DNA of 64,000 nucleotides from Escherichia coli (GTDB lineage Bacteria > Pseudomonadota > Gammaproteobacteria > Enterobacterales > Enterobacteriaceae), in NCBI RefSeq assembly GCF_003790525.1, contig NZ_CP033635.1. One strand, given 5' to 3'. A model generated the notes under the pieces. It was not told the origin of the DNA, did not search any database, and saw nothing but the letters and a program-made list of their open reading frames with translations. Position numbers and translations under genes: made by a program. Of the stretch, positions 25,871 through 43,938 are shown in pieces. Numbering within the stretch: the first letter of the stretch is position 1; the number at the start of each line of letters is the position of its first letter.

Positions 25871-25940
25871 GCCGGGTAGGTCTGATAAGACTGTATCAGG
25901 CATCATGGCCGGATGCGGCGTTAACGCCTTATCCGGCCAC
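25871..25940. repeat. Paired REP elements (BIME-like) between ypfH and ypfN
   Basis: gccgggtaggtctgataag...ggccggatgcggcgttaacgccttatccggccac: two REP-type units in inverted orientation. Confidence 0.7.
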
Positions 25941-27304: not shown

Positions 27305-27679
<375 letters not shown>

Positions 27680-28041
27680 TTATGAGAATAAATACTCATT
27701 TAAGGGTGAAAACATTTTGCCTGCAAATGATCATCAGGAAATATAACATTATCGAAGTATTCAAATTAACAACTATTAAATAACATTAAACATTTTTAAC
27801 GTAAACATTAAGAATATTCATCTTGTTATCTGTCTGTATTTTAACCAGAATTAAATCAGTATTAGATGCCGTATGAATATCTCGAAATGTTGCTGTGTAT
27901 CACATACAAATTATCACCGCAGGACCATAGTATTTACATAAGGTTTGTCCCCCGGAGGTAGTCATCGCAGCAATCGAGTAAATTAGCTTCACCACGGTAT
28001 ATTGTTTCCGTAGAATACCCATAATTATAAGAGAGGTTGTT

Positions 28042-28101: not shown

Positions 28102-28166
28102 TTCCTGAGACAAAGTACAAACAGCAAGAACCCGCTGAGCAGGTTCTTAATCGGAAAGTTGAAAAA

Positions 28167-28194
28167 GGCGACACATTAGCATGTCGCCTTTTTT
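28167..28194 (+). terminator. Rho-independent terminator after ypfM, probably also serving convergent acrD
   Basis: ggcgaca-cattagca-tgtcgcc hairpin followed by TTTTTT; an A-run precedes it, so the complement also carries a U-tract. Confidence 0.65.
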
Positions 28195-40538: not shown

Positions 40539-42818
40539 ATGGATGACCAGTTAAAACAAAGTGCACTTGATTTCCATGAATTTCCAGTTCCAGGGAAAAT
40601 CCAGGTTTCTCCAACCAAGCCTCTGGCAACGCAGCGCGATCTGGCGCTGGCCTACTCACCAGGCGTTGCCGCACCTTGTCTTGAAATCGAAAAAGACCCG
40701 TTAAAAGCCTACAAATATACCGCGCGTGGTAACCTGGTGGCGGTGATCTCTAACGGTACGGCGGTGCTGGGGTTAGGCAACATTGGCGCGCTGGCAGGCA
40801 AACCGGTGATGGAAGGCAAGGGCGTTCTGTTTAAGAAATTCGCCGGGATTGATGTATTTGACATTGAAGTTGATGAACTCGACCCGGACAAATTTATTGA
40901 AGTCGTCGCCGCGCTTGAACCGACCTTCGGCGGCATCAACCTCGAAGACATTAAAGCGCCAGAATGTTTCTATATTGAACAGAAACTGCGCGAGCGGATG
41001 AATATTCCAGTATTCCACGACGATCAGCACGGCACGGCAATTATCAGCACTGCCGCCATCCTCAACGGATTGCGCGTGGTGGAGAAAAACATCTCCGACG
41101 TGCGGATGGTGGTTTCCGGCGCGGGTGCAGCAGCAATTGCCTGTATGAACCTGCTGGTGGCGCTGGGGCTGCAAAAACATAACATCGTGGTTTGTGATTC
41201 AAAAGGCGTTATCTATCAGGGCCGTGAGCCAAATATGGCGGAAACCAAAGCCGCATATGCGGTGGTGGATGACGGCAAACGTACCCTCGATGATGTGATT
41301 GAAGGTGCGGATATTTTCCTCGGCTGTTCCGGCCCGAAAGTGCTGACCCAGGAAATGGTGAAGAAAATGGCTCGGGCACCAATGATCCTGGCGCTGGCGA
41401 ATCCGGAACCGGAAATTCTGCCGCCGCTGGCGAAAGAAGTGCGTCCGGATGCCATCATCTGTACCGGCCGTTCCGACTACCCGAACCAGGTGAACAACGT
41501 CCTTTGCTTCCCGTTTATCTTCCGTGGCGCGCTGGACGTTGGCGCAACCGCCATCAACGAAGAGATGAAACTGGCGGCAGTACGCGCGATTGCAGAACTG
41601 GCCCATGCGGAACAGAGTGAAGTGGTGGCTTCAGCGTATGGCGATCAGGATCTGAGCTTTGGTCCGGAATACATCATTCCAAAACCGTTTGATCCGCGCT
41701 TGATCGTTAAGATCGCTCCTGCGGTGGCGAAAGCGGCGATGGAGTCGGGCGTGGCGACGCGTCCGATTGCTGATTTCGACGTCTACATCGACAAGCTGAC
41801 GGAGTTCGTTTACAAAACCAACCTGTTTATGAAGCCGATTTTCTCCCAGGCTCGCAAAGCGCCGAAGCGCGTAGTTCTGCCGGAAGGGGAAGAGGCGCGC
41901 GTTCTGCATGCCACTCAGGAATTGGTAACGCTGGGACTGGCGAAACCGATTCTTATTGGTCGTCCGAACGTGATCGAAATGCGCATTCAGAAACTGGGCT
42001 TGCAGATCAAGGCGGGCGTTGATTTTGAGATCGTCAATAACGAATCCGATCCGCGCTTTAAAGAGTACTGGACCGAATACTTCCAGATCATGAAGCGTCG
42101 CGGTGTCACTCAGGAGCAGGCGCAGCGTGCGCTGATCAGTAACCCGACAGTGATCGGCGCGATCATGGTTCAGCGTGGCGAAGCCGATGCAATGATTTGC
42201 GGTACGGTGGGCGATTATCATGAACACTTTAGCGTGGTGAAAAATGTCTTTGGTTATCGCGATGGCGTTCACACCGCAGGTGCCATGAACGCGCTGCTGT
42301 TGCCGAGTGGTAACACCTTTATTGCCGATACCTACGTCAATGATGAGCCTGATGCAGAAGAGCTGGCGGAGATCACCTTGATGGCGGCAGAAACTGTTCG
42401 TCGTTTTGGTATTGAACCGCGTGTGGCTCTGTTGTCGCACTCCAACTTTGGTTCTTCTGACTGCCCGTCGTCGAGCAAAATGCGTCAGGCGCTGGAACTG
42501 GTCAGGGAACGTGCGCCAGAACTGATGATTGATGGTGAAATGCACGGCGATGCAGCGCTGGTGGAAGCGATTCGCAACGACCGTATGCCGGACAGCCCTT
42601 TGAAAGGTTCCGCTAATATTCTGGTGATGCCGAACATGGAAGCTGCCCGCATTAGTTACAACTTACTGCGCGTTTCCAGCTCGGAAGGTGTGACTGTCGG
42701 TCCGGTGCTGATGGGCGTGGCGAAGCCGGTTCACGTGTTAACGCCGATCGCATCGGTACGTCGTATCGTCAACATGGTGGCGCTGGCCGTGGTTGAAGCG
42801 CAAACCCAACCGCTGTAA
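40539..42818 (+). CDS. maeB: NADP-dependent malic enzyme (malic enzyme domain plus PTA-like C-terminal domain)
   Basis: 759-aa ORF; divergent from talA. Confidence 0.95.
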
Positions 42819-42835
42819 TTCTTTTTTAACTCTCA

Positions 42836-42863
42836 CGCTTACCCTGAATATTCAGGGTAAGCG
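42836..42863 (+). terminator. Perfect palindrome after maeB, putative terminator
   Basis: cgcttaccctgaatattcagggtaagcg (stem of about 12 bp) followed by a weak U-tract (GTTTAG). Confidence 0.45.
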
Positions 42864-43110
42864 GTTTAGCTGCAATATATTAGTAAAGTTTATTACTGAG
42901 TTTGCGAATAATAAAAAAAACAGTATATAAAATATCTCGATATTATTTTATTTATATTCATGCGTTGCATATGAAAGTTTATGCACCACAGCAAATATCT
43001 CTCCATTCTTAGTGATCTACCTCACCTTTTAAACGCGCTTGCCGAATTTTGTTATTTACTCTGACGAAATATTGTCACGATACACGAAAGTTTTTCACAG
43101 GCGGCGACTC

Positions 43111-43446
43111 ATGGATAAAGAACGCATCATTCAGGAATTTGTGCCCGGTAAACAGGTCACACTGGCGCATCTCATCGCGCATCCCGGCGAGGAACTGGCG
43201 AAGAAAATCGGCGTTCCGGATGCGGGCGCAATTGGCATTATGACGCTAACTCCCGGAGAAACGGCGATGATCGCCGGTGATTTAGCGCTGAAAGCTGCCG
43301 ATGTGCATATCGGTTTTCTCGACCGTTTTAGCGGCGCGCTGGTGATTTATGGCTCGGTGGGTGCAGTAGAAGAAGCGTTATCACAAACCGTCAGTGGTTT
43401 AGGTCGCTTATTAAATTATACGCTTTGTGAAATGACCAAAAGTTAA
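43111..43446 (+). CDS. eutS: Ethanolamine-utilisation microcompartment shell protein (BMC domain)
   Basis: Track ORF 43039-43446; the ATG at 43111 ([32 protein letters not shown]) gives 111 aa. Confidence 0.85.
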
Positions 43447-43458
43447 TACGAGGCATTC

Positions 43459-43938
43459 ATGAAACGAATTGCGTTTGTGGGTACCGTCGGGGCAGGAAAA
43501 ACAACGTTATTTAATGCGTTGCAGGGGAATTATACCCTCGCCAGAAAAACACAGGCCGTGGAATTTAATGATAAGGGCGATATTGATACGCCGGGTGAAT
43601 ATTTTAGCCATCCCCGCTGGTATCACGCCTTAATTACCACGCTACAGGATGTGGACATGCTGATCTATGTCCACGGCGCGAATGACCCGGAAAGTCGGTT
43701 GCCTGCCGGGTTGCTGGATATTGGCGTCAGCAAACGGCAAATCGCCGTCATCAGTAAAACGGACATGCCAGATGCTGACGTCGCCGCAACGCGAAAGTTA
43801 TTGCTTGAGACGGGCTTCGAAGAGCCGATTTTCGAGCTAAACAGCCACGACCCGCAAAGCGTGCAGCAACTGGTGGATTATCTGGCATCTCTCACCAAAC
43901 AGGAGGAAGCAGGTGAAAAAACTCATCACAGCGAATGA
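43459..43938 (+). CDS. eutP: Ethanolamine-utilisation P-loop protein (acetate kinase-like)
   Basis: 159-aa ORF with Walker A GTVGAGKTT. Confidence 0.9.
   Translation: MKRIAFVGTVGAGKTTLFNALQGNYTLARKTQAVEFNDKGDIDTPGEYFSHPRWYHALITTLQDVDMLIYVHGANDPESRLPAGLLDIGVSKRQIAVISKTDMPDADVAATRKLLLETGFEEPIFELNSHDPQSVQQLVDYLASLTKQEEAGEKTHHSE

Follow-up and report, generated by a model that had tools for sequence, protein, structure and literature searches.

The maeB–eutS Locus

The DNA analyzed here is a 64,000-nucleotide stretch of Escherichia coli sequence, referred to below as the window. [quoted passage not shown] Positions 42700–43200 (501 bases) are 100% identical to E. coli strain SC516. Between the two genes lie a short linker, a perfect palindrome with a degenerate tail, a very AT-rich segment, and a conserved block that adjoins eutS (Table 1). 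The eut operon is intact from eutS to eutR (43111 to ~57950), and no prophage is present between eutA and eutB. The prophage CPZ-55 occupies that position in BW25113 and similar K-12 strains (PMC7617246).

Table 1. Features of the maeB–eutS region, in window coordinates
Feature	Position	Strand	Remarks
maeB, malic enzyme, 759 aa	40539..42818	+	ORF list; annotation of SC516 and K-12; co-directional with eutS
T-rich 17-nt linker TTCTTTTTTAACTCTCA	42819..42835	+	from maeB stop codon to hairpin
Perfect 28-nt palindrome CGCTTACCCTGAAT/ATTCAGGGTAAGCG	42836..42863	+	sequence, fold, single copy, positional equivalence
Degenerate polymorphic tail GTTTAGCTG	42864..42872	+	last 9 nt common to islet-carrying strains
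Escherichia-specific very AT-rich segment	42873..42992	.	alternative allele to the 2227-bp islet
Conserved eut control region (P1 and eutS 5' leader)	42993..43110	+	118 nt, 39.8% GC
CRP-like inverted repeat AGTGA-TCTACC-TCACC, AGTGATCTACCTCACC (candidate)	43011..43026	.	center 43018.5; invariant GTG...C...T columns
Nearly invariant 18-nt box TTGCCGAATTTTGTTATT	43039..43056	.	columns conserved to at least 90%; probable EutR site, at the −35 region or partly covering it
Candidate extended −10 TGTTATTTA	43050..43058	+	TGTTAT conserved; start would be near 43064, −47 from ATG
Alternative candidate extended −10 TGTCACGAT, TGn-xAxxAT	43073..43081	+	start would be near 43088
Shine-Dalgarno-like AGGCGG	43099..43104	+	6 nt before the eutS ATG
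eutS, 111 aa	43111..43446	+	first gene of the intact 17-gene eut operon

A Perfect Palindrome Close behind maeB

The perfect palindrome that the initial annotation had described behind maeB is borne out exactly. Its two arms of 14 nt each (14+14, at 42836–42863) are 100% complementary with a spacer of 0, and on the sense strand it begins 17 nt past the maeB stop codon. The corresponding RNA adopts a 12-bp stem capped by a 4-nt AUAU loop (dG −20.4 kcal/mol), a fold whose z value against shuffled sequences is −7.8. Such a stable, GC-clamped hairpin on the sense strand, close behind a stop codon, is a hallmark of a terminator. Chance offers little for such structures: in Markov-1 sequence, 0.025 perfect stems of at least 12 bp with loops of 0–8 nt are expected per 64 kb. 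The window holds two loci of this kind, and 42836–42863 is its longest perfect palindrome. The other perfect 12-bp stem, at 28162–28193 with a loop of 8 nt, is located where acrD and ypfM converge and probably terminates both. An imperfect, REP-like palindrome, TGGCCGGATGCGGCGTTAACGCCTTATCCGGCCA, is found at 25906–25939, between ypfN and ypfH. When 42300–43600 was scanned against Rfam at a permissive threshold, chance-level matches only were returned.

Of 5426 complete E. coli genomes, 5409 carry the hairpin element once; the two "places" reported per genome are both strands of one site. The exact 44-mer of the window is present in 2285 of the 5426 genomes. Another common allele, found for example in K-12, has A in place of G at 42863 and therefore a C-A mismatch at the terminal pair, so that not every strain has a perfect palindrome. 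All of the intact E. coli hairpins that were read (8/8) agree in their inner 26 nt, and strain MS 21-1 has a hairpin with a diverged loop region. In E. coli PRO_A-1482-6W-A_ESBL (locus L073, about 1530–2320), IS1 lies within the 3' arm of the hairpin, flanked by a target duplication of CAGGGTAAG; this insertion constitutes a natural hairpin-disruption mutant. E. coli 19AR0656 (H12, NZ_CM132277.1) matches only the first 114 of the 501 query nucleotides, i.e., to the end of maeB, so its spacer must have undergone a different rearrangement. Some 50 other genomes have neither a full-length spacer nor the islet described below.

The Equivalent Slot in Relatives

Species-representative genomes supplied 63 loci encoding EutS relatives, and the spacer was extracted wherever maeB precedes eutS. 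In Citrobacter, Klebsiella, Pseudocitrobacter, and Yokenella, the spacer is 159–166 nt long (stop codon through ATG) in 20 of 23 loci. These short spacers consist of a homologous linker, a textbook terminator with the arrangement GGCGCGGG-loop-CCCGCGCC-TTTTTTATTT (for example, GGCGCGGG-TTTC-TCCCGCGCC-TTTTTATTT), and then, directly, the conserved eut block. The E. coli linker TTCTTTTTTAACTCTCA resembles TTTCACTTTAATTAATTC, the sequence ahead of the canonical terminator in Citrobacter and Klebsiella. Two longer Citrobacter spacers carry the same terminator ahead of inserted DNA, and the K. pneumoniae spacer has two different hairpins. Altogether, a canonical terminator occupies the same slot in 23/23 maeB–eutS loci of the four sister genera, which makes the E. 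coli hairpin its positional equivalent. Salmonella diarizonae likewise has a canonical terminator, GGCGCAGG..CCTGCGC-TTTTTTAT, after maeB. In Escherichia species, the slot of the sister-genus terminator is filled by a different hairpin, the palindrome.

Variation within Escherichia bears on which strand matters. The hairpin is kept in E. whittamii, E1V33, MOD1-EC7003, and E. coli MS 21-1, with loops of different length and sequence. One-sided substitutions affect three stem positions, and each of them yields U-G or G-U in the maeB sense and a C-A mismatch in the opposite sense. The variant hairpins have dG values of −16.3 to −19.6 on the + strand versus −7.5 to −15.6 on the − strand, an asymmetry consistent with pairing being kept in the transcribed sense. 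In a pairing test, 94 of 96 cells were paired, with three one-sided G-U substitutions that pair on the + strand only, no compensatory ones, and uninformative shuffle controls; because compensatory double substitutions are absent, the pairing statistics have no power. As far as these sequences can tell, the pattern of variation fits an RNA element of the maeB transcript and not a DNA operator. We consider it likely that the palindrome encodes a stem-loop with which the maeB transcript ends, and that it is an Escherichia-specific equivalent of the Rho-independent terminator in sister genera.

The eut Control Region

The spacer downstream of the palindrome had been described as about 250 bp of very AT-rich DNA in which the eut promoter was expected, and each half of this description applies to a different part of it. 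Very AT-rich composition holds for 42864–42992, which at 25.6% GC falls in the lowest 0.24% of all 129-nt segments of the window (53.6% GC as a whole). It does not extend to 42993–43110, so the spacer is not uniform. The promoter, conversely, can be placed in the eutS-proximal ~118 bp, which are conserved, but not in the very AT-rich part. The most AT-rich stretch of the window is elsewhere, at 27647–27917 in the divergent ypfM–yffB spacer, where GC content drops to 20% over 129 nt.

In a 20-locus alignment, 42993–43110 is conserved from Escherichia to Morganella, and the block is common to all examined Enterobacterales loci in which eutS follows it. The conservation upstream of eutS that is expected of P1 among EutR-encoding Enterobacterales is thus a property of 42993–43110 and not of 42864–42992. 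The 129-bp AT-rich segment is absent from Citrobacter, Klebsiella, and Yokenella, from which it follows that the EutR-dependent promoter does not require it. It is the conserved 118 bp adjoining eutS, rather than the very AT-rich DNA, that make up the real eut control region, and for promoter engineering, 42864–42992 can be regarded as lineage-specific and probably dispensable.

Several elements can be proposed within the block. By hand alignment, the inverted repeat at 43011–43026 matches 15 of the 21 positions of the CRP consensus. This candidate joins a conserved TGTGA-N6-TCACA-like repeat to reported CRP binding at eutS, which is among the cAMP-CRP targets found in E. coli K-12 by genomic SELEX, a survey in which the bound position is not specified (PMC3105977). 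The TTGCCGAATTTTGTTATT box is almost unchanged as far as Morganella and Buttiauxella. According to a review, the EutR footprint lies just upstream of the P1 −35 element, confirming a prediction from comparative genomics (PMC5821096), and the box is probably the EutR site.

Two candidate start sites can be derived from the sequence, one near 43064 (with TGTTATTTA as the −10 element) and one near 43088 (with TGTCACGAT). The eutS RNA in a Salmonella CsrA study extends from −47 to +48, and its first base is homologous to 43064. At the second candidate, A43077 and A43080 are invariant and T43081 is nearly invariant across genera in the 20-locus alignment. With a start near 43088, the CRP site would lie near −69.5 to −70.5 and the invariant box would cover the −35 region. 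An upstream CRP site with an activator box over the −35 region is the usual layout of AraC-family activators that work with CRP. In either model, more than 200 bp separate the promoter from the palindrome upstream of it, and the promoter falls outside the very AT-rich DNA. The eutS leader/promoter also contains a direct repeat, ACGAAAnnTTnTCAC, at 43064–43078 and 43084–43098 (20 bp apart), the first copy of which is partly conserved across genera and the second of which is not. A scan of 42600–43300 for consensus promoters and terminators called nothing. P1 was presumably missed because it is activator-dependent, and the palindrome hairpin was missed because its T-tract is weak. That the eut promoter is controlled by CRP and EutR is already known.

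A Glycosyltransferase Islet in Place of the AT-Rich Segment

The segment between the hairpin tail and the eut block is one allele of a variable slot. In 92 of the 5426 complete E. coli genomes, 42873–42992 is replaced by a 2227-bp islet, as in E. coli LD67-1 (locus L065, 3046–5272), with 84 copies sharing at least 99% identity. Two genes are encoded by the islet, both on the minus strand: a family-4 (GT4) glycosyltransferase and a GINT1_N-family protein. In the islet strains, homology to the window continues across the hairpin and the 9 nt GTTTAGCTG, and it resumes at 42993. There, the TTA at 42865–42867 serves as the stop codon for the islet's minus-strand glycosyltransferase-like gene. Intermediate or diverged forms are found in MS 21-1 (L068), which has one gene plus remnants, and in HS-02 (L067), which has a spacer of 984 nt (stop codon through ATG). 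In a multiple alignment, collinear patches of similarity connect the AT-rich segment with the regulatory region of the islet. When the segment alone is compared with that regulatory region, z is 0.9–2.9. Because this similarity hardly exceeds that of shuffles, an origin of the segment as a deletion scar is plausible but a candidate only.

The hairpin and the AT-rich DNA could on this evidence be relics of a convergent arrangement, in which a minus-strand islet once lay between maeB and eut and shared the hairpin. Most E. coli would then have deleted the islet genes, leaving the hairpin, 9 nt with the old stop codon, and a decayed promoter piece. The placement of the islet exactly between 42872 and 42993 in 92/5426 genomes, with its last gene ending 3 nt from the hairpin, speaks for such a history, as do the intermediate forms in MS 21-1 and HS-02 and the collinear similarity patches. 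However, the similarity of the AT-rich segment is barely above shuffles, and the sequence behind the hairpin on the minus strand is A-rich rather than U-rich. Moreover, the same hairpin is present in other Escherichia species without the islet, and the same cassette occurs without a related hairpin behind it both in Shimwellia and in another, Logan-assembled contig with a protein cluster labeled Pluralibacter gergoviae. We regard this history as possible but doubtful; it is compatible with the explanation of the hairpin as the maeB terminator. Import of the hairpin together with the glycosyltransferase cassette was considered and rejected, since Shimwellia and the Logan-assembled contig carry the cassette in other contexts with no related hairpin.

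A wider reading, quite improbable when taken as a whole, makes the spacer of most E. coli genomes the scar of a lost convergent islet, with the hairpin as a terminator formerly shared by maeB and the islet and the 120-bp AT-rich DNA as a fossil of the islet's promoter region. This DNA would still attract RNA polymerase or nucleoid proteins and would thereby provide Escherichia with a lineage-specific layer of eut or antisense-maeB control. By genomic SELEX, a binding peak of the sigma-S RNA polymerase holoenzyme was found in the eutS–maeB spacer of K-12, which corresponds to about 42800–43100 of the window (PMC5493296). This peak is compatible with promoter-like AT-rich DNA, and its presence in a binding list does not imply function.

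Other lineages have also received DNA here. In Salmonella diarizonae (locus L007, 946–2187), a minus-strand gene for a 413-aa radical-SAM/SPASM protein and AT-rich DNA lie between the canonical maeB terminator and the eut block, and in Salmonella arizonae (L006), the start of the same gene adjoins the eut block. Salmonella thus has cargo of another kind in this slot. The 10-nt AGGGTAAGCG, common with the leader of the Salmonella radical-SAM gene, was taken as a chance match (roughly 0.07 expected). Citrobacter amalonaticus (L015) and Citrobacter sp. MGH106 (L025) have an extra 125–210 bp between the maeB terminator and the eut block; the two inserts have CTCTAAATAATTC...CCTGTAATTT in common and resemble a small repeat or MITE. 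In Enterobacteriaceae, foreign DNA has repeatedly entered the interval from the maeB terminator to the eut promoter.

The U-Tract and Competing Readings of the Hairpin

The palindrome had been noted for its weak U-tract, and rightly so. Its tail, GUUUAGCU, has four U in the first 8 nt (RNA tract GUUUAG), fewer than the five or more in the 8 nt directly 3' of the stem that we used to define a U-tract. Relatives have better tails, among them ATTTTTAT / ATTTTTATATT, GTTTTATTG, and GTTTTGCTG. The count is 6/8 in E. whittamii and in MOD1-EC7003, and MS 21-1 and E. coli PCP06238 just reach the limit at 5/8. The same gradation appears in the tail score, which is −2.8 in the window, −3.2 to −3.7 in Escherichia relatives with variant hairpins, and about −5.3 to −5.8 in the canonical terminators of Citrobacter, Klebsiella, and Salmonella. 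Among E. coli strains, the tail varies (GTTTAG, GTTTTC, GTTTGG, GTTAAG, and GTCCAG), and GTCCAG, the form in THO-010, is almost devoid of U. Judged from these alleles, constraint on the E. coli U-tract seems weak, and because the tail is polymorphic, selection for a canonical intrinsic terminator seems relaxed. This weakly constrained U-tract is the main argument against an efficient canonical terminator.

It is also the reason why we retain another reading, in which the hairpin is mainly a barrier to 3'-exonucleases that sets or stabilizes the end of the maeB mRNA, with transcription stopping downstream, either through Rho or diffusely in the AT-rich spacer. The degenerate, polymorphic tail (down to GTCCAG) next to a strictly conserved stem would suit such a barrier, and Rho-dependent transcripts have been described that are trimmed back to stable stem-loops (PMC6061677). 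The 137 nt after the hairpin are C-poor, however (16 C versus 18 G in 42864–43000), which is unlike a Rho loading site, and true U-tracts stand at the equivalent position in sister species and genera. We judge a role confined mainly to 3'-end protection to be unlikely.

It is very unlikely that the palindrome belongs to a REP/BIME-type family of dispersed repeats or serves mobile DNA as a target for recombination. An islet junction does lie 9 nt from it, and IS1 did enter its 3' arm in one strain and duplicate CAGGGTAAG. Yet the many copies per genome that mark a dispersed repeat are replaced here by a single locus in each of 5409 genomes, and on that ground, the dispersed-repeat reading was rejected. 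In addition, the palindrome has no similarity to the REP-like one at 25906–25939, and insertions are found at the maeB–eutS spacer in other genera that lack the Escherichia hairpin.

That the palindrome serves as a DNA site for a dimeric regulator or an insulator protein is exceedingly improbable despite its perfect dyad symmetry, because other Escherichia have lost the central symmetry (29-nt forms, odd loops, and T-G positions) and kept the RNA pairing, sister genera have an unrelated GC-rich terminator there, and the palindrome sits where a gene ends, with the conserved control region about 150 bp farther downstream. An operator would be expected to keep its dyad symmetry in relatives and to match a known consensus; the symmetry is not kept, and of the two consensus sequences compared, those of the ARG box and Cra, neither fits. 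The TGAAT/ATTCA half-sites resemble those of the ARG box and Cra sites. This match was rejected on half-site spacing, which is 0–2 nt in the core TGAATATTCA, whereas the ARG-box and Cra consensus sequences need 4. Between a protein-binding site and an insulator-like terminator, the two roles suggested in the initial annotation, the slot shared with the sister-genus terminators and the pairing in the maeB sense favor the terminator, and the broken symmetry speaks against the protein site.

Proposed Role of the Hairpin

Our preferred explanation is that the palindrome acts at the 3' end of the maeB transcript. RNA polymerase leaving maeB would transcribe the GC-clamped 12-bp hairpin 17 nt past the stop codon. 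The hairpin and the short GUUUAG tract would then cause part of the transcripts to be released and leave them with a nuclease-resistant 3' end. Constitutive maeB transcription would in this way be kept out of the tightly regulated eut operon. Both termination at the hairpin and its efficiency are what we infer from sequence, and with its short, polymorphic U-tract, the E. coli hairpin probably terminates less efficiently than its counterparts in sister genera.

Published proteomics of K-12 W3110 bear on this proposal. MaeB was quantifiable and unchanged with or without ethanolamine plus B12, and in the same experiment, Eut proteins were undetected or barely detectable without the inducers and rose 5- to 325-fold with them (PMC11334477). 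With MaeB steady and Eut induced, little maeB transcription appears to be expressed as Eut protein, and these data argue, indirectly, against substantial read-through from maeB. In the supplementary 3'-end (Term-seq) data of PMC7815308 and PMC12207403, no entries were found for maeB, eutS, or the K-12 coordinates.

In its hairpin and its position, the element conforms to the definition of an intrinsic terminator; its U-tract falls short of that definition in this genome and satisfies it in sister species. The finding is an ordinary one, and nothing at the locus departs from known kinds of elements: a striking perfect palindrome of a well-studied E. coli locus resolves into an ordinary end-of-gene hairpin. 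What is mildly new is that the ancestral terminator has been replaced in place in Escherichia, that its U-tract has decayed, and that the spacer has been reused by small islets. For engineering or deletion of the eut promoter, the hairpin may have to be treated as a leaky insulator in E. coli.

Comparison with Known Systems

The closest counterpart of the hairpin is the canonical intrinsic terminator after maeB in Citrobacter, Klebsiella, Yokenella, and Salmonella. Both lie at the same position, about 20 nt past the stop codon, and on the same strand, and both form a stable hairpin with a GC-rich base that is followed by the eut control region. The Escherichia stem differs in having an unrelated sequence, 12 bp instead of 8–9, and half of its pairs A-U. 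In E. coli, moreover, the U-tract has shrunk to GUUUAG and is polymorphic, and the terminator scan makes no call.

In islet-carrying E. coli, the hairpin stands between the ends of maeB (+) and the glycosyltransferase-like gene (−), as a bidirectional terminator would. Unlike such a terminator, it has no U-rich tract on its minus-strand side, and the window contains no convergent gene. With REP/BIME elements, the palindrome shares an intergenic location downstream of a gene and a place in the range from imperfect to perfect palindromes. It departs from them in being single-copy, in its sequence, and in showing no clustering.

The control region, finally, can be compared with P1 of Salmonella and EHEC, which responds to the AraC-family regulator EutR with ethanolamine and adenosylcobalamin, and to CRP. 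The E. coli block is nearly identical to those of Salmonella, Citrobacter, and Klebsiella. A CRP-like site and an invariant box next to the −35 region are present in it, and no difference is seen within the block. What sets the E. coli locus apart is the upstream 129-bp AT-rich DNA, an Escherichia-specific addition that lies outside the conserved promoter.
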